A stretch of 20,000 nucleotides of DNA from an uncultured virus (IMG/VR IMGVR_UViG_3300028888_003544) (Duplodnaviria > Heunggongvirae > Uroviricota > Caudoviricetes): the IMG/VR virus record IMGVR_UViG_3300028888_003544; one strand, 5' to 3'. Positions 1,122-15,045 of this stretch are shown one piece after another (position 1 is the first letter of the stretch; each line of letters opens with the position of its first letter). The position numbers and the translations under genes are program-made. The notes beneath the pieces are model-generated. The model was not told the DNA's origin and made no database searches. It saw nothing but the letters and a program-made list of their open reading frames with translations.

Positions 1122-1841
1122 TCATATTAATCCATGCGTTGTTAGATGGTCCCTAATTTCTTTTGCTATATCTGCTATTATTCCATAATCAAAAAGATTA
1201 CTTAGCTGTCGGGTATGTATAACTAATTTCTTTCCATCGTCACCATGATGTGTGTAAAACCAATGCCCGGATTTATAACTATCTTTATGTTCTCCTCTTG
1301 GTTTACCCTTTGAATCAGGCTTAATATCATACTCCACACCAAAAGACTTATTAATTAAGAAACCTCTTTCTTCATCGTTTGTAATAAAGTTTCCACATGC
1401 CAATAATATAACTGGAAAACTCTTTATGAACTCTGATTTTTTAAAAAAACGAAGTCTCTCATCTATATTCTTGATGGTTTCATTATCTAGTTCTGCCTGT
1501 GGGCGAAACATTGTGTTGAGTTCTGTAGTAAAAGCGTATTCCTCAAAACCATACACAGTAGGGTTAAATTCCTTTTGTGGAAATACTTGTTCAATCATTT
1601 TTTGATAATTATTCCACGTAGGATTTCTTTTACGGACACCCTTTCCAAAATTATTATTTTTGCAAAGATCATAATCTTCTTGTAACAGGAGACGTATATC
1701 CCCTGGATCTGCGATCAAGCTCTCTTTATAAGGTTCTTTTCCAACAATTAGAATGTGAGAATTAGGATTTCCCAGTCCACACCACTCATTACGATTCTGA
1801 CATTCTACTAAAAACTCTTCAAACAGTTTCTTTTTTTCCAT
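1122..1841 (-). CDS. Uracil-DNA-glycosylase-superfamily-like protein (divergent)
   Basis: N-terminal WCGLGNPNSHILIVGKEP resembles UDG family 4/5 motif A (GxGnpxAxixxVGExP). C-terminal KLVIHTRQLS sits where motif B (HPS) is expected. Confidence 0.6.
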   Translation of the reverse strand: MEKKKLFEEFLVECQNRNEWCGLGNPNSHILIVGKEPYKESLIADPGDIRLLLQEDYDLCKNNNFGKGVRKRNPTWNNYQKMIEQVFPQKEFNPTVYGFEEYAFTTELNTMFRPQAELDNETIKNIDERLRFFKKSEFIKSFPVILLACGNFITNDEERGFLINKSFGVEYDIKPDSKGKPRGEHKDSYKSGHWFYTHHGDDGKKLVIHTRQLSNLFDYGIIADIAKEIRDHLTTHGLI

Positions 1842-1906: not shown

Positions 1907-2425
1907 TCAAAAAAGAAGCACGGTATCACGCAAAAACCAATTCAATAGCAGCTTATTGCCACAGAATATGGGTCTTGAAACTATATCGAATGAGTAAGTG
2001 CAGAACATCACTCTTTCAATCATTGTGTCCTGTGAAAAAACTTGTGCAACAAACATTCGCTGCAAATTATCCTCAACGGTACATTCAGAAATCCATTTCA
2101 TTCCAAACAACTTCGCTGGATCGTGTTCCTGCAAATGGTTGCCATCAGGGAATATGTACTGAATAACTTGGAAACGCTCAAAGAAAGGATCTTTCAGTAA
2201 TTCCTCGTCATAGACAACATAATAACAATATAATTGAACATCAATATTCTTATTTTTTGAAGAACCAGGAAAGTCTCTAAATAGTCTCTTCAGATACTTA
2301 AAATCTATATCCTCGTTCCCTTCTTTTTGCGTGACAACCAGAATTTTCGCATCAGGATTGCCACAACCAACATTCTTATTGGGGAACCTTTCCCCCAGTC
2401 TATTAAGTTCATCATTATTTGCCAT
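1907..2425 (-). CDS. Degenerate UDG-like paralog of 1122..1841
   Basis: NVGCGNPDAKILVVTQKE aligns to WCGLGNPNSHILIVGKEP. FFERFQVI aligns to FIKSFPVI, and KLFGMKW to KSFGVEY. Confidence 0.5.
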   Translation of the reverse strand: MANNDELNRLGERFPNKNVGCGNPDAKILVVTQKEGNEDIDFKYLKRLFRDFPGSSKNKNIDVQLYCYYVVYDEELLKDPFFERFQVIQYIFPDGNHLQEHDPAKLFGMKWISECTVEDNLQRMFVAQVFSQDTMIERVMFCTYSFDIVSRPIFCGNKLLLNWFLRDTVLLF

Positions 2426-2445: not shown

Positions 2446-2482
2446 CAAAGATATGGAGGCAATATGCAACATGATTGCATAT
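2446..2482 (-). promoter_or_regulatory. -7 box TATCTTTG (2446-2453) plus palindromic operator ATATGCAA-CATGA-TTGCATAT (2462-2482)
   Basis: Perfect 8-bp inverted repeat over the -33 region of the promoter for 1907..2425. Confidence 0.65.
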
Positions 2483-2491
2483 CAGAAAGAA

Positions 2492-3400
2492 TTATTCATA
2501 AAAATCGTGCATTTCTTGAATAATGGCCTTGATTTGCTGACGGAAGGAATCTGGCGAGAGTACTTCCAACTGGTTCCCATGACTCAAGATCTCCTGAATA
2601 AAATCGTAGGTTGGTGCTATCTTATATTCAAAAATGGTATACTCAGCTTTTGACTCTATTTCACGCTGGCTATGATGCAAAGGAAGTGAACGCAGATAAT
2701 GCGGTTTCTCGCGATAGGTCTTCAATCGTATAGTCATAGGCTTCGCATCATGGAATACGCCATAATAATCTGTGTAATAATCTTGGGGCGAGTAATCCTT
2801 TGGGTAGTTAAACTTGGATTCCATGACCTCCACGCGTTTGATGCGATCAAGTCCAAAGCGGTAAATCTCTTTCCCTGGCAATACAAGCGCCATCACATAC
2901 CAACGACGTTTGAACAACCTGATGAAGTAAGGATTAACCTTTAATCCCTGAACAGTATTGCCAAAGAAATCTTCATAATCAATCACTATTTGGCGATTAT
3001 CACGCATCGCAGTTGTAATGATTTCGAGGTAATACCTCCCAGATGGTACATCCTCCAACATGATCCTATCGCTAATAGAACGGTTATCCATCAAGAGATT
3101 ACTAACAGCAAAGGAATCGAGCAGCCATTGGTTGATGGAATCATTCTCCAGCGCATCAGGGTTATCAATATAATATAGGTTAGAACCTCTCTGACACTCT
3201 ATTACCACCCCAAACTGCATCAGGATCGCATTTCGATGATTATGGAAAGTTCGCAATTTCAGAGGCTGGTGCAGATCATTGATATATGCATTATCCCATT
3301 TGCGGGCAATATCCTCAAACGAAATCTTGCCAGCATCATAGATTGTGGAAATCAACCACATGTATTTTGCGTATAACCTATCAGTCATGTTTTTATCCAC
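2492..3400 (-). CDS. WYL-domain transcriptional regulator (wHTH-WYL-WCX)
   Basis: LRTFHNHRNAI (HTH), VNPYFIRLFKRRWYV and FGLDRI (WYL), LRSLPLHHSQ and LEVLSPDSFR (WCX). Start is GTG at 3400 or ATG at 3388. -7 box TAATTTTG at 3414-3421. Confidence 0.92.
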   Translation of the reverse strand: MDKNMTDRLYAKYMWLISTIYDAGKISFEDIARKWDNAYINDLHQPLKLRTFHNHRNAILMQFGVVIECQRGSNLYYIDNPDALENDSINQWLLDSFAVSNLLMDNRSISDRIMLEDVPSGRYYLEIITTAMRDNRQIVIDYEDFFGNTVQGLKVNPYFIRLFKRRWYVMALVLPGKEIYRFGLDRIKRVEVMESKFNYPKDYSPQDYYTDYYGVFHDAKPMTIRLKTYREKPHYLRSLPLHHSQREIESKAEYTIFEYKIAPTYDFIQEILSHGNQLEVLSPDSFRQQIKAIIQEMHDFYE

Positions 3401-3475
3401 TTAAATATGAGCACAAAATTACAAAAATTACTGATAATTCATCAACTTTGCAAAATGTTTTGATAATTATTAAGG

Positions 3476-3495
3476 TATGCCAGATAAAATGCACA
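3476..3495. promoter_or_regulatory. Candidate WYL operator TATGCCA-N7-TGCACA upstream of WYL-1
   Basis: Matches the consensus of the sites at 2463, 4339 and 5891. Confidence 0.45.
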
Positions 3496-3500
3496 CGTAA

Positions 3501-4295
3501 TTATTTCTCTTTGTTGTTTATAAAAATTGGAAGATCATCATATCGTGGTTCGCCTTTCAACACTTTAAGTGCAATGTCCTGCCAAGTCTTGCACTTGAAA
3601 TAGGGTGCATGAGCCATTTTGATATGCAAGTTGCGGACATTGATATTATAGGGAAATGCAAGCATTGCACAACGTTCGCCTATCTTCGCGTCCATGTTAT
3701 CATAGTCCAAATCATAAAAAACATTTCCAATGATAACTACTTTATTGGTATATCGCATTTGGATAGGACAATTGTCAAGTACGTAATAATAGTCATCATT
3801 ACCCTCCCCAAAGTTGTTGACCCCAGCAATAAAAGTGTATCCCTTATAATTCTTGTTTGGATGTCTTGCTCTACTCTTCTCACCATTGGAAATGATATTC
3901 GTGTTCATTATGGCCGTTGCTTTTACTACGTCGCCAGTGTATATTTTCTTGCCTTTATCATCTCGATAACCAGTATAGAAGCCTGCGAACATGACAGGAA
4001 ATATGTTGATAGGTTCGAACATATGCAAATTTCCCAATGAACCGTAAAGGTCGAAATCATCCAACGTCAAATGCTCTTTCAATGTTTTCCTTTGGGTCCA
4101 ATAATACATTTGATCGTGATAAAAGAACAAATCGTAGATGCTGGTATATCCAAAACTACCATCTTCGTTGATAAACCTGACTTCCACATCCTCGCCATAG
4201 TGCTCGATCTCATCTTCTGCTCCTAAAGAGCATAATTCTAAGAACCCGTTGCACATCTTTTTCAACTCTTCCAAACTTAAAACTCTTGCTTTCAT
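3501..4295 (-). CDS. YopX-like domain protein with N- and C-terminal extensions
   Basis: GFYTGYRDDKGKKIYTGDVV matches the YopX core (TGxxDkxGxxIYxGDiv). VIIGNVFYD matches the YopX C-terminal VIGNI motif. Confidence 0.65.
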   Translation of the reverse strand: MKARVLSLEELKKMCNGFLELCSLGAEDEIEHYGEDVEVRFINEDGSFGYTSIYDLFFYHDQMYYWTQRKTLKEHLTLDDFDLYGSLGNLHMFEPINIFPVMFAGFYTGYRDDKGKKIYTGDVVKATAIMNTNIISNGEKSRARHPNKNYKGYTFIAGVNNFGEGNDDYYYVLDNCPIQMRYTNKVVIIGNVFYDLDYDNMDAKIGERCAMLAFPYNINVRNLHIKMAHAPYFKCKTWQDIALKVLKGEPRYDDLPIFINNKEK

Positions 4296-4322
4296 ACTTC
4301 ACCCTTTTTTCGTTTGACAGTA

Positions 4323-4360
4323 CAAAAGTAAGAGTAGATGTGGCAAAAACGTTGCACAGT
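4323..4360 (-). promoter_or_regulatory. -7 box TACTTTTG (4323-4330) plus operator TGTGGCAAAAACGTTGCACAGT (4339-4360)
   Basis: 4341-4360 is 19/20 identical to 5893-5912. Confidence 0.7.
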
Positions 4361-4369
4361 GGGGAATAA

Positions 4370-5182
4370 TTATCTGAATATTTTTAATATTTCCTCATAT
4401 TTACCATCTTCAAAATTTGCTGGTGTGATATATTGGCTAATCATACTTGATGGCTTTTTCTCTACAATATTAAACTCATCAAAGAATTTCTGTGACAATA
4501 GTTTTGTCCATTCCTTTTTCGCTCTCATTATAAGAAAACACACTTTATCTCTACGACTCTCAGCAATATGCCAAAGCATTTTCTTTAGATAATCCTGTGA
4601 CTCTAACTTGTCGCCTTTGCGGGGAAACACTCGTCCTGAAGTTTGAGAAGTATATCCATGATACTCCACAAGTGCAATTCGTCGATAGAATTCTTTTTCA
4701 CTAAGACCTGTGTCCATTCTGAGCTGTTTCAGCATTTTTACCCAATACCAATCACCAAGCATATTTACAGCCTCATTACAGGTAATACAGCAATCCTCAT
4801 TTTTCTCATCTTCGGGCAAGAAAGCCTCTGCCTCCAGACGAAGTGTTTGGGCTTTATATTCTATTAGTTGACGCCGTACTGTCTCGTTGGTTTGCATAAG
4901 CAACGCCAGCGTTTTGTTAACTTCTGGAACATAACCAGGATTTAGACTTAATATAATTAGACGAGCTTTGAGTGGATTTCCCCACCATGGTTCTGCTGGG
5001 ATCTTAGTGATTATCTCGTCTGTTGTACCATTCGCTTTCTTATTGTAGTTTTCAATTGCGTCCCTATCACCTTCACAGAAATAGTTGTTTTCTCCGTAAA
5101 GACAATCCATTTTATTAGGTGAATACATTTTCGCAACCTCCAACCAGGGATTTTCGGTTATTTTAAACTGCTTTTCTGCCAT
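4370..5182 (-). CDS. UDG-fold DNA glycosylase, Brig1-like candidate
   Basis: IPAEPWWGNPLKARLIILSLNPGY (PxPxxG...LxLNPG motif A), ALVEYHGYTS and FLIMRAKKEW. Length 270 aa. Own -7 box TATCTTTG at 5206-5213. Confidence 0.6.
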   Translation of the reverse strand: MAEKQFKITENPWLEVAKMYSPNKMDCLYGENNYFCEGDRDAIENYNKKANGTTDEIITKIPAEPWWGNPLKARLIILSLNPGYVPEVNKTLALLMQTNETVRRQLIEYKAQTLRLEAEAFLPEDEKNEDCCITCNEAVNMLGDWYWVKMLKQLRMDTGLSEKEFYRRIALVEYHGYTSQTSGRVFPRKGDKLESQDYLKKMLWHIAESRRDKVCFLIMRAKKEWTKLLSQKFFDEFNIVEKKPSSMISQYITPANFEDGKYEEILKIFR

Positions 5183-5333
5183 ATTACAAATATTTAATTT
5201 TGGTGCAAAGATACGAAATATTTGTCATTTTTCTATCCTTTCCCTTTTTATCTCCCCCAAAAATCCTTATTTTCATCTTAACAATTATGTTTGTCGTTTT
5301 TTATAATCTTGAATCAACTTAAATTTCTCCAGA

Positions 5334-5861
5334 TTATCCTGTAGGGTTCCTTTTATGATAATCAATTTTTTTTCGCCTATCATCTGGCCAAAAGTTTAGA
5401 ATTGCATTTAAGCACGAATGTCGTACAACTAAATAAAGAACATTTAAGTCATCATTATGAAGTTCATTTCTGCCAATATAGTTCTTGGTTAATACAGTAA
5501 CCAATATATCCCATTCGTCATCATCGTCAAAATCAATGGTATCAATATACAGTTCATGTGCCAATTTCTTCATTTCTGAAACCATAGAATTAGTATCATA
5601 CTTAGGCAACAGTAGAAATAGTTTTTCGAGTATCTTTATGACATCTTCTGGAGAATAGAATCGATAATCAATCAACCAATAGGCATCTACCCAATCACAA
5701 TAAACATGATGAGAATTATATTCTGATTTACCAATATAGAAAATACGATCATCTTTAATAAGACGTATGCCACTGAATCCTTTATTGATGAAGTCCATTT
5801 TAACTTCAGCAATTCCATCCATCTTTATAATCATTTCTTTTACTATCTCTATCTTGCTCAT
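5334..5861 (-). CDS. Hypothetical protein divergent from WYL-2
   Basis: Long ORF. Start moved to ATG at 5861 (MSKIEIV) because the longer ORF runs through the promoter/operator region. Confidence 0.7.
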   Translation of the reverse strand: MSKIEIVKEMIIKMDGIAEVKMDFINKGFSGIRLIKDDRIFYIGKSEYNSHHVYCDWVDAYWLIDYRFYSPEDVIKILEKLFLLLPKYDTNSMVSEMKKLAHELYIDTIDFDDDDEWDILVTVLTKNYIGRNELHNDDLNVLYLVVRHSCLNAILNFWPDDRRKKIDYHKRNPTG

Positions 5862-5874
5862 AGTTGTTTTTCTG

Positions 5875-5935
5875 CAAAAAAACAAAAAGAAATGGCAAAA
5901 ACATTGCACAGTCTCAGATAATTTTGCTATATTTG
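5875..5935. promoter_or_regulatory. Divergent promoter pair with central operator TGGCAAAAACATTGCACAGT (5893-5912)
   Basis: + strand -7 box TATATTTG at 5928-5935 precedes WYL-2. A degenerate minus-strand -7 box (TTTTTTTG) lies at 5875-5882. Confidence 0.7.
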
Positions 5936-5953: not shown

Positions 5954-6856
5954 ATGGCAAAAAATCTATTGGCACGCTACATTTGGGAGGTATCCACCAT
6001 TTACAGAGCAAGGCGAATAACGCTGAAAGAAATCAATGAGAAATGGCGCGATTCACCCTATTATGACGGCAAGGATATCCCAAGACGTACATTCGACTAT
6101 CACCGTAAGGAGGTAGAGATGATCTTCGACTTGAACATAGTTTGTGATAAGCACGATAACACTTATCATATTGAAGATGATGATGGTTATAGAAATGGGG
6201 AAGTCCGCCGTTGGCTTATTAACAGCTTTGCCATGACAAGTGTTATTCGCGAAGGCAGAGAATTAGAAGACCGCATATCACTAGAACAGATTCCTTCTGC
6301 TGAGCCGTTTCTATCAATTGTAATCCAGGCTATGCGTGAAAACAAAATACTCGATTTGCACTATCAAAGTTATGAGCGAGACATACCCACTATCCATCTG
6401 CTACACCCTTATGCTGTGAAACTGTTCAAGCAACGATGGTACGTTATAGGTTTGAGTGAAAAGAAAGATCGTATTTTGATATTTGCAATGGATCGCATCC
6501 AGGAATTAATAATTACTGATCAGAAGTTCCGCTATCCTAAAGAATTCAGCATTCATGACTATTATCGCGATTCATTTGGTATTATTATAGATGATATTAT
6601 AGTAGCACAGCGTATTCGTCTGAAAGTTATGAACAACCAGGCATATTATTTTCGTTCATTACCACTTCACTCCTCGCAAAAAGAAATTGAAACTCTTTCT
6701 GAGTATTCTATTTTTGAATATTGGCTAAAACCTACTTATGATTTTGAGCAGGAGATACTTTCCCATCGCGAAGATGTAGAGGTCTTGGAGCCTGCCCAAC
6801 TAAGAGAGACTATTAAAGAGAGCATCTTGAAAATGGCGAAAATATATTCTCTCTAG
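5954..6856 (+). CDS. WYL-domain transcriptional regulator (paralog of 2492..3400)
   Basis: RRTFDYHRKEV, HPYAVKLFKQRWYV, FAMDRI, FRSLPLHSSQ and VEVLEPAQLR. Confidence 0.92.
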   Translation: MAKNLLARYIWEVSTIYRARRITLKEINEKWRDSPYYDGKDIPRRTFDYHRKEVEMIFDLNIVCDKHDNTYHIEDDDGYRNGEVRRWLINSFAMTSVIREGRELEDRISLEQIPSAEPFLSIVIQAMRENKILDLHYQSYERDIPTIHLLHPYAVKLFKQRWYVIGLSEKKDRILIFAMDRIQELIITDQKFRYPKEFSIHDYYRDSFGIIIDDIIVAQRIRLKVMNNQAYYFRSLPLHSSQKEIETLSEYSIFEYWLKPTYDFEQEILSHREDVEVLEPAQLRETIKESILKMAKIYSL

Positions 6857-14613: not shown

Positions 14614-15045
14614 TTAACCAACTCCAAATAGTTCTTTTCGCATTTGTGACTCTAACCAATTATTGTCTCTTAAAGAAGACTGGGCAAATGCTAAAGCTAT
14701 CTTCGTTCTATCCTCTTCAGTCTTTTCTATATATCTTCGTCTAAGTTCTTTACGAGCAAGCGAAACCATACCACCCTTCTTATCCAGCAACTCTTCTATC
14801 AATTTGTCAGTGTCCATTTCTTTTATCTTGTCGCTAAGTTTACCTATTTTATCAGAAAAGAGGAGTCTGAATACTTCTTCTTTTAGAGTCTTATTGTGAG
14901 AAATCCACCTGCTAGTATAAAGAGTTATAAGTTCTTGTCGAGTTAAATCCATCAGCATGTCAATACACTTTTTCAACTCAGAGTCATCCCAATTTGTGTA
15001 ATGAAACCTTTTGGCTTGCTTTAAGATATAGTTCAATTCTTCCAT
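14614..15045 (-). CDS. Hypothetical alpha-helical protein
   Basis: 143-aa ORF starting 5 nt after the deiminase stop. Confidence 0.75.
   Translation of the reverse strand: MEELNYILKQAKRFHYTNWDDSELKKCIDMLMDLTRQELITLYTSRWISHNKTLKEEVFRLLFSDKIGKLSDKIKEMDTDKLIEELLDKKGGMVSLARKELRRRYIEKTEEDRTKIALAFAQSSLRDNNWLESQMRKELFGVG

Follow-up and report, generated by a model that had tools for sequence, protein, structure and literature searches.

Two WYL-domain regulators, WYL-1 and WYL-2, lie close together in the window (the whole 20,000-nucleotide stretch of DNA that was analysed), each accompanied by palindromic operators that stand at one fixed distance from a -7 box, over the -33 region of promoters that lack a -33 element. 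Each of these neighbouring sensors probably switches on its own small set of defence-like genes, and the data as a whole are best explained by two independent WYL activator cassettes, a reading to which we assign a probability of roughly 0.7.

Operators at a fixed distance from the -7 box

The preliminary description had quoted four inverted repeats, beginning at 2463, 3476, 4339 and 5891, and all four strings are present there. Three are real sites (s1, s3 and s4 in Table 1) with a common 19-bp palindrome, TRTGCH-N7-DGCAYA, in one register (2463-2481, 4340-4358 and 5892-5910), whereas the fourth candidate (s2, 3476) has an 8-nt spacer, lacks a box and is not conserved. On the minus strand of the three promoters, a 9-nt gap separates the palindrome from the Bacteroidota -7 box behind it (TATCTTTG, TACTTTTG and TTTTTTTG, respectively), and the operator occupies the position of the -33 element. 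The constant 23-nt offset reported earlier holds at each of them (2453-2476, 4330-4353 and 5882-5905), but the 19/20 identity given for the sites at 4339 and 5891 is reached only when the compared strings are shifted by 2 nt and is 17/20 as they were written.

A matrix of the palindrome alone fails to separate the window sites from chance (P = 0.15 for at least four matches), ranking 4340 14th in the window and 3476 outside the top 15. A composite model of site, 9-nt gap and box was built from 96 sites of other WYL clades, chosen by means of a matrix to which WYL-2-clade sites had contributed; it ranks 2463 first, 5892 second and 4340 third in the window, with scores reached by 0, 3 and 1 of 300 shuffles, respectively. 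De novo dyad counts upstream of 58 non-redundant WYL genes gave TGC-N9-GCA 19 times vs 1.6 expected and, in the same upstream sequences, GCC-N7-GGC 7 times vs 0 expected.

Table 1. Features of the two WYL cassettes, with positions in the window
Feature	Position	Strand	Remarks
UDG-like gene downstream of the s1 target	1122..1841	-	-33 TTG and -7 box (1869-1876) of its own; without operator
s1 target, 172-aa protein	1907..2425	-	UDG-like N-terminal GNP motif, without GE-PG residues; no Pfam family
-7 box TATCTTTG	2446..2453	-	9 nt after s1; without -33 TTG
Operator s1, perfect palindrome TATGCA-N7-TGCATA	2463..2481	-	WYL-1 type; top composite score in window
WYL-1, wHTH-WYL-WCX regulator	2492..3388	-	helix KLRTFHNHR; Pfam WYL + WCX
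WYL-1 -7 box TAATTTTG	3414..3421	-	canonical TTG 21 nt upstream
s2, palindrome with 8-nt spacer	3476..3495	.	cassette junction; probably no working site
YopX-family gene, s3 target	3501..4295	-	Pfam PF09643 E 5.8e-5; atlas 0.98
-7 box TACTTTTG	4323..4330	-	9 nt after s3
Operator s3, TGTGCA-ACGTTTT-TGCCAC	4340..4358	-	WYL-2 type
UDG-superfamily fold protein (predicted)	4370..5182	-	own -7 box 5206-5213, no operator here
175-aa gene, variable first slot behind s4	5334..5861	-	one distant homolog in same slot, L016
Degenerate -7 box TTTTTTTG	5875..5882	-	9 nt after s4; without conserved A
Operator s4, divergent promoter	5892..5910	.	its TTG (5904-5906) is also the WYL-2 promoter -33 element
WYL-2 -7 box TATATTTG	5928..5935	+	
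WYL-2, wHTH-WYL-WCX regulator	5954..6856	+	helix PRRTFDYHR; Pfam; closest solved structures DriD, PafBC

Recurrence beside WYL genes in Bacteroidota

The motif scan of orthologous loci and genomes that had been proposed as a check found the motif associated with WYL loci elsewhere, and the claimed arrangement, with WYL-linked sites that keep a constant distance to the box and cover the -33 region, is repeated next to WYL genes across the Bacteroidota. Among 1667 distinct -7 boxes in loci L001-L090, a palindrome stands at 9 nt from 49, at 10 nt from 15 and at 16 nt from 12, any other distance accounting for at most 4 boxes; with the training regions of these loci masked, 20 boxes have one at 9 nt and 12 at 10 nt. 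The 251 Bacteroidales genomes contain at least 39 exact matches with a spacer of 9 (among 150 listed of 164 matches) and 0 with a spacer of 12. A full WYL gene lies within 11 kb of 20 of 38 exact sites, and none within 11 kb of the other 18; 3 exact sites are located within coding sequence, and 3 precede clusters of bacteriocin-type peptides. At the one-mismatch level the genome-level link to WYL genes is weak (55/123 vs 41/128, p = 0.05), and the A1 profile has a member in 123 of the 251 genomes.

A -33 TTG occurs at 0 of 35 site-bearing promoters vs 89 of 289 others, an absence that is partly forced by the palindrome consensus itself. In other WYL clades, 24 distinct sites precede the box of the WYL gene itself, again by 9 nt, and the site variant tracks the WYL recognition helix, clade by clade. 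A core WYL gene carries two exact divergent sites in each of the two Bacteroides genomes that were looked at (L171 and L172). Genes behind the sites include members of the GIY-YIG, GmrSD, Nmad2, PLD, RtcB, HIRAN, HsdM and TOTE families. The same promoter also stands in front of bcp-recA in all 6 genomes of one genus; among 8 other genomes examined, none was found to carry an operator before recA. Several sites without a nearby ORF head short peptides or fall in coding sequence, and searches for noncoding RNA behind such sites with Rfam (12 loci) and ARAGORN (20 loci) gave only unrelated tRNAs.

Composition of the two cassettes

Every one of the 75 loci with sufficient sequence has the s1 operator immediately behind WYL-1, 71 of them with a strict box at 9 nt, and the operator remains attached to the WYL-1 stop codon in all 75 while the neighbours change; WYL-1 loci are 74-100% identical and are not independent. 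The sequence upstream of WYL-1 varies between loci, and of the 74 WYL-1 loci whose upstream sequence is available, 3 contain s2; these 3 are near-copies of this island, and 2 of them carry it in mutated form. We reject s2 as an autoregulatory site in view of its non-conservation, its 8-nt spacer and the lack of a box at 9 nt (the WYL-1 box is 54 nt away). The proposed autoregulation of WYL-1 through 3476 is thus unsupported, since s2 is unconserved and the WYL-1 promoter has a -33 TTG of its own. Autoregulation of WYL-2 is at most a possibility: its promoter takes its -33 element from the TTG within site 5892, and DriD, which has the same divergent arrangement, does not control its own gene (PMC13004042).

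In the WYL-2 clade, s4 is kept in 19 of 19 loci, in all of which the WYL-2 box is 16 or 17 nt away. The divergent box reads TTTCTTTG in the near-copies L094 and L111, and across the 19 loci it is strict in 12, TTCCTTT(G/A) in 5 and shifted by one base in 2. All 15 distinct sequences upstream of YopX show the s3 arrangement of site, 9 nt and box, and 18 of 22 WYL-2 loci have a YopX-family gene. In 4 related loci the counterpart of 4370..5182 follows the divergent operator directly; 5334..5861 gave no Pfam match.

The earlier UDG-like assignment stands at the level of fold for 4370..5182, whereas 1907..2425 shows only an N-terminal motif. The predicted model of 4370..5182 (pLDDT 94) has the UDG alpha/beta fold: all 50 listed VIA rows are UDG-family, the best among them with Z 7.3, rmsd 3.6 and 158 aligned, and the best Foldseek E is 0.02. 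Neither the Foldseek nor the listed VIA matches for this protein include a Brig1-like structure, although such a likeness may exist, and sequence searches with the three UDG-like families gave no PDB match below E 0.4. A homolog of 1907..2425 is present in 68 of 80 WYL-1 loci; the protein gave no Pfam or PDB match and atlas matches below 0.9, and its profile matches the 1122 family over 41 columns (93%). The 1122..1841 protein matches a UDG weakly (E 0.45).

Probable activation by separate WYL proteins

We infer from promoter layout and protein class that two independent WYL cassettes adjoin each other in a defence-type island, whose host is probably a rumen bacterium of the Prevotellaceae, and that each WYL dimer would bind a 6-N7-6 palindrome spanning roughly -40 to -22, the usual -33 position. 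The signal bound by the WYL/WCX pocket would be a nucleic acid, probably single-stranded DNA that arises through damage or phage replication, and the ligand-bound protein would recruit RNA polymerase to a promoter with a -7 box only. By this route WYL-1 would drive 1907..2425, the gene directly downstream of itself, and WYL-2 would drive both the YopX-like gene and the divergent operon, made up of 5334..5861 and perhaps 4370..5182.

Activation by the WYL proteins is likely, by analogy, because the promoter layout is DriD-like and the WYL-2 model is closer to DriD and PafBC than to BrxR and CapW. This predicted model aligns over its full length to DriD, and a fold search with it returned DriD and PafBC at E 5e-13 to 1e-11 and CapW and BrxR at 3e-9 to 7e-7. 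Both proteins have the wHTH, helical linker, WYL and WCX domains of the DriD/PafBC type, and the 6-N7-6 palindrome, with its AT-rich centre, stands at one box distance in place of the upstream element. The fixed spacing had already been read as fitting activation, and it agrees with DriD-type geometry.

It is unlikely that the WYL proteins instead repress from these sites, as BrxR and CapW do, releasing them on sensing nucleic acid. The genes concerned belong to defence islands, a known setting of WYL repressors (PMC9122601), and in all 19 loci s4 covers the TTG that serves the WYL-2 promoter as its -33 element, which would permit autorepression. However, this is the only overlap with an element of a complete promoter; the sites lie upstream of the -7 box, and no operator of the BrxR/CapW type, downstream of or across a complete promoter, was found among them. 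Repression does not need spacing fixed to one base, and the target promoters are presumably weak alone, because they have no -33 element and often no A in the -7 box (42 vs 30 at +9). The closer likeness of the proteins to DriD and PafBC also argues against it.

The preliminary description had placed all sites in a single regulon. In its fullest form this would have WYL-1 and WYL-2 binding all sites interchangeably, or as a PafBC-like heterodimer, with both self-regulating, which we consider quite improbable. The two proteins are 40% identical, with a common RT(F) helix core, and their sites share a TRTGCA half, so cross-binding is plausible where the cassettes meet; yet they meet in only 3 of 80 WYL-1 loci (3 of 21 when only those with 3 kb or more of upstream sequence are counted) and in 0 of 19 WYL-2 genome loci, each clade has its own site variant, and s2 is unconserved. 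Because co-occurrence is rare and the site variants are distinct, comparison of the loci indicates two separately travelling cassettes, WYL-1 with site 2463 and WYL-2 with sites 4340 and 5892, rather than one regulon. It is very improbable that another, unlinked Bacteroidota regulator binds the palindrome and that WYL genes merely co-reside in the islands: similar TGCAA-N5-TTGCA palindromes precede metal transporters at 10 nt and bacteriocin-type peptides at 9 nt, with no WYL gene nearby in either case, but s1 stays with the WYL-1 stop codon, the site variant follows the recognition helix and the architecture matches the DriD site.

Novelty and significance

PADLOC pointed to no known defence system: beyond its WYL models, it recognised just the phosphoesterase, as PDC-S10, and gave two weak matches; NCBIfam names neither WYL protein. 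In the literature searched we found no paper describing the motif or the WYL family in Bacteroidota, a statement of novelty on which supplementary motif tables could bear. The operator-plus-promoter signature makes this uncharacterised WYL family searchable, and it predicts island genes induced by damage or infection, thus pointing to candidate defence genes of unknown function. It also suggests that the geometry of activation by DriD is compatible with the unusual sigma factor of Bacteroidota, and the sites at bcp-recA open the way to testing whether Bacteroidales have a damage response independent of LexA. A broader and tentative reading, which we think possible but would not yet favour, is that nucleic-acid-sensing WYL activators serve throughout the phylum as plug-in switches for swappable anti-phage genes, with portable promoters that would be near-silent without the activator because they have no -33 and often no melting A; the divergent UDG-fold glycosylases here may attack modified phage DNA, and at least one genus may have wired bcp-recA as a LexA-independent damage response.

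Comparison with known WYL regulators

The mechanism itself is already known from DriD, SiwR and DdaA. BrxR and CapW are likewise WYL regulators of defence islands that bind inverted repeats, but they are repressors, with R-BOX1 (11-5-11) downstream of the BrxR promoter (PMC9122601), and they rank lower in sequence and fold searches. PafBC of mycobacteria is among the closest folds to the WYL-2 model, although it binds a non-palindromic site as a heterodimer (PMC13004042). SiwR, also mycobacterial, binds as a homodimer to an imperfect 19-bp palindrome within the promoter of neighbouring genes, but that site lies between -35 and -10 (PMC10693628). DdaA of Moraxellaceae is a WYL activator of repair and anti-phage genes (PMC12392091, PMC13010146) with a related site, CGWCA-N5-TGWCG, and has one ligand-pocket arginine replaced by alanine; in contrast to the mostly local regulons here, with operators centred near -31, it regulates genome-wide from a site ~50 bp before the start (PMC12392091).

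DriD of Caulobacter crescentus differs in sequence (15-16% identity) and in its site, TACGAC as opposed to TRTGCH; the DriD-ortholog core CGAC-N7-GTCG, read by Arg37/Glu40/Arg41, was not found, the core here being TGCH-N7-DGCA. On a mapping inferred from the motif, both helices, PRRTFDYHR and KLRTFHNHR, retain the R-T pair but lack the second arginine, and in a by-eye reading of the alignment the equivalents of the ssDNA-pocket residues Y168 and Y192 are kept, those of R178 and R207 apparently not. The systems here use Bacteroidota -7/-33 promoters in local mobile cassettes, often with several paralogs per genome, and some clades place the site before their own WYL box, whereas DriD does not regulate itself (PMC13004042). 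The likeness is nevertheless one of both protein and promoter. DriD is a wHTH-WYL-WCX protein (PMC13004042, PMC10853764) that binds ATACGAC-N7-GTCGTAT, like the operators here a 6-N7-6 palindrome with an AT-rich centre and a conserved G, which replaces the missing -35 at a fixed distance from the -10 (PMC13004042). By our own count on two promoter oligonucleotides printed there, the 19-bp core is 9 (possibly 10) nt from the -10 hexamer (PMC13004042), and DriD, as WYL-2 does, lies divergent from the operon that it activates (PMC13004042).

The operator element in the window

The four operator strings of the preliminary description are all present where it had placed them. When oriented with transcription, three of the strings prove to be the same element: a palindrome of 19 bp and, 9 nt further on, the Bacteroidota -7 promoter box. 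The 19 of 20 nt said to be shared by the sites at 4339 and 5891 are obtained once the two are shifted by 2 nt, but as written they share 17 of 20. The spacer of the site at 3476 is 8 nt long, and a box at 9 nt is missing.

Palindromes of the three operator elements in the window
Site	Position	Sequence
s1	2463-2481	TATCTTTG
s3	4340-4358	TACTTTTG
s4	5892-5910	TTTTTTTG

A matrix of the palindrome only did not place the window sites above chance (P = 0.15). The composite model (site, 9 nt and box), trained with 96 sites from other WYL clades, ranked s1, s4 and s3 first, second and third in the whole window; among 300 shuffles, 0, 3 and 1, respectively, scored as high.

The motif across WYL loci and genomes

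The comparison loci were 80 of 540 from genomes, 10 viral and 80 of 127 from metagenomes. Scanning them for the motif and its spacing to the box, as had been proposed, showed that it recurs upstream of WYL genes with a spacing peak at 9 nt. In an unbiased count of dyads in the DNA ahead of 58 non-redundant WYL genes, four of the six highest-ranked were GCC-N7-GGC, TGC-N9-GCA, GCA-N7-TGC and GTG-N11-CAC, and the site (consensus TRTGCH-N7-DGCAYA) is present at 35 of the 58; the palindrome is a trait of the WYL family. Over 1667 distinct strict -7 boxes (keeping the conserved A), the palindrome lies at 9 nt in 49, 10 nt in 15 and 16 nt in 12, with at most 4 at each remaining distance, and the peak persists when training regions are masked (20 at 9 nt, 12 at 10 nt). 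Among 283 oriented strong palindromes, many from related loci, the conserved A is missing from the box at 9 nt in 42, against 30 with a strict box; across the genome and viral loci (L001-L090) the A-less box is usually TTTCTTTG or TTCCTTTG. Part of the 10-nt class stands ahead of metal transporters, and some of its sites may be those of a different regulator. A TGCAA-N5-TTGCA palindrome at 10 nt ahead of ArsP/HMA and cation-efflux genes (L011:6496-7887; L030:3022-3918) is probably the site of a metal-responsive regulator.

The composite pattern, scanned with up to 1 mismatch over 251 genomes of the order Bacteroidales, gave 164 matches in 96 of them, against ∼35 (hand count) for the reversed control. 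At least 39 matches with spacer 9 are exact among the 150 of 164 listed, and a spacer of 12 gave no exact match in the 251 genomes. The association of the motif with WYL loci elsewhere, on which the preliminary description had staked its reading, was seen: exact matches occur in 21 of 122 genomes having a WYL match versus 6 of 128 without (p = 0.002). For any match (≤1 mismatch) the difference is small (55/123 versus 41/128, p = 0.05). Of the 38 exact sites considered outside the seed genome, 15 are no more than 11 kb away from a listed WYL gene; all 23 others were fetched, and 5 of them proved to stand beside full WYL genes and 2 beside WYL fragments. Exact sites without a WYL neighbor include 3 within coding sequence, 3 ahead of bacteriocin-type peptide clusters and others ahead of HIRAN, HsdM, FtsK or bcp genes; with neighbors so mixed, the WYL link is strong, not exclusive. 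Short leader-type peptides are preceded by TRTGCAATGAWATTGCACA, 9 nt and the box at L202:754 and 2387, L218:7938 and 8832, and L205:2648, with an HlyD/ABC exporter (L202, L218) or a CAAX protease (L205) also behind; no WYL gene lies in the fetched DNA of these three loci, and the sites possibly belong to a separate regulator with the same geometry. In two Bacteroides genomes (L171:976-1473, L172) a second WYL gene has two exact divergent sites facing an uncharacterized gene of 166-189 aa, a tractable experimental model.

Two cassettes and their regulators

WYL-1 (2492..3388, minus strand) and WYL-2 (5954..6856, plus strand) both have WYL and WCX domains and are 40% identical. The single WYL regulon of the preliminary description is not supported: of 80 WYL-1 loci, only 3 also carry WYL-2, each a near-copy of the window island, and site variants differ by clade; these are two cassettes. 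Directly after the WYL-1 stop codon, s1 is present in all 75 loci that extend far enough; 71 of these have the strict box at 9 nt, and the spacer is constant in length and variable in sequence. The WYL-1 loci are close relatives (74-100%), and 68 of 80 have a homolog of 1907..2425, the gene behind s1. Site s4 is found in 19 of 19 WYL-2-clade genome loci, its box at 9 nt pointing away from WYL-2 (strict in 12, TTCCTTT(G/A) in 5, shifted by one base in 2); which gene comes first behind s4 differs among these loci. All 15 distinct sequences upstream of the YopX-family gene (3501..4295) carry s3. The site variant tracks the recognition helix: PRRT(F/W)DYHR pairs with the asymmetric TGTGCA-ACGTTTT-TGCCNN, and in the WYL-1 clade KLRTFHNHR is matched by a perfect palindrome, TATGCA-N7-TGCATA.

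Outside the 3 near-copies the site at 3476 is absent, and 2 of the 3 have it in mutated form; it is thus best read as a junction relic. Given this restriction and an ordinary WYL-1 promoter with TTG at 21 nt, the proposed WYL-1 autoregulation through it is not supported; DNA upstream of WYL-1 varies between loci. In all 19 loci the distance between s4 and the WYL-2 box is 16-17 nt, so that the TTG within s4 falls at -33 of the WYL-2 promoter. This overlap may allow autorepression, but dual use of the TTG suffices to explain the spacing, and DriD, which has the same divergent layout, does not control its own expression (PMC13004042). In other clades, 24 distinct sites stand 9 nt ahead of the box of the WYL gene itself, an arrangement suggestive of positive feedback in those clades.

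Genes behind the sites and the island

The 4370..5182 protein has a UDG-superfamily fold in its predicted model (pLDDT 94; best Z 7.3, rmsd 3.6, 158 aligned); homologs lie immediately behind the operator in 4 related loci, but in the window the gene has a separate box with no site. The 1907 and 1122 families have only a UDG-like N-terminal motif in common. Many of the 58 representatives of site-headed genes scanned across loci had no family match; the named families include GIY-YIG, GmrSD, Nmad2, PLD, HAD_SAK_2, PNP-UDP, MoxR, tubulin/FtsZ, DnaE and an exonuclease. From such neighbors we infer that the window targets may act in defense or repair. Sites also precede a DnaE-type polymerase (viral contig, L083:7453-9870), a tubulin/FtsZ-family gene (L078:6056-6718), RtcB (L217:8183-9352) and, at L220:4036 and 8829 (-), near-duplicate genes for very acidic ∼45-aa peptides.

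A strong site precedes bcp-recA in 2 of 10 recA loci, both from one Bacteroidales genus (G182, G061); in the remaining 8 genomes, 7 of which were searched across 5.5-6 kb, no site was seen ahead of recA. All 6 genomes examined in this genus (L231-L236) have operator, 9 nt and box ahead of their bcp-recA operon, a candidate LexA-independent damage response.

The nearest WYL-2 relatives are rumen Prevotellaceae records, and gut runs containing the window stretch are bovine or sheep where the host is recorded. The island also encodes YopX-family, metallo-β-lactamase-fold, phosphoesterase, deoxyinosine glycosylase and GIY-YIG proteins, the phosphoesterase matching PADLOC PDC-S10 (E 8e-64). Downstream of WYL-2, a 317-aa gene, an MBL/β-CASP-like gene and this phosphoesterase overlap as an operon (window:7713-10485), a candidate defense module without the operator; the 317-aa gene, uncharacterized, has by eye a DLWG..IELK nuclease-like motif. 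The deoxyinosine glycosylase (window:11100-11831; TIGR04274 above cut-off, with an N-terminal extension) is the island's fourth UDG-superfamily-like gene. A 54-aa segment (35%) is common to window:13627-14583, 14614-15045 and the 1907 family, and at WYL-1 loci similar segments adjoin 1907-family genes or are fused to them; this suggests shuffling of domains inside the island.

Direction of regulation and comparison with known WYL systems

The Bacteroidota -33 element is TTTG, 19-21 nt upstream of the box, and in the promoters of this set the TTG peaks at 20 nt. It is found in 0 of 35 site promoters versus 89 of 289 others, an absence that the palindrome consensus partly forces. According to PMC9723704 the -7 box covers -12 to -5, so that the palindrome occupies about -40 to -22. 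The DriD site, ATACGAC-N7-GTCGTAT, is described as lying over a missing -35 at constant distance, with polymerase recruited (PMC13004042), and in the didA and CCNA_03891 oligonucleotides printed there 9 nt, or possibly 10, separate the -10 hexamer from the 19-bp core (hand count). Repression as by BrxR fits less well: R-BOX1 lies downstream of the BrxR promoter (PMC9122601), whereas the window sites lie upstream of the target -7 box. Sequence and fold searches (WYL-2 model pLDDT 76, pTM 0.54) ranked DriD and PafBC above CapW and BrxR. The missing -33, the DriD-like geometry, this ranking and the downstream BrxR operator together favor activation, and predicted activation by the WYL proteins is the best reading. 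The fit of the fixed spacing to activation, as argued in the preliminary description for three of the sites, is supported.

The ligand is less sure than activation. In the WYL-2 alignment, judged by eye, two tyrosines of the DriD pocket are kept and two arginines are not; DdaA likewise lacks one ligand-pocket arginine (PMC12392091). We found no account of the motif or of the WYL family in Bacteroidota in the literature covered (main texts, mostly open-access). The operator element is real, and a predicted WYL activator of the DriD/SiwR/DdaA mechanism is well supported. The mechanism of activation is already known from DriD (PMC13004042), SiwR (PMC10693628) and DdaA (PMC12392091).
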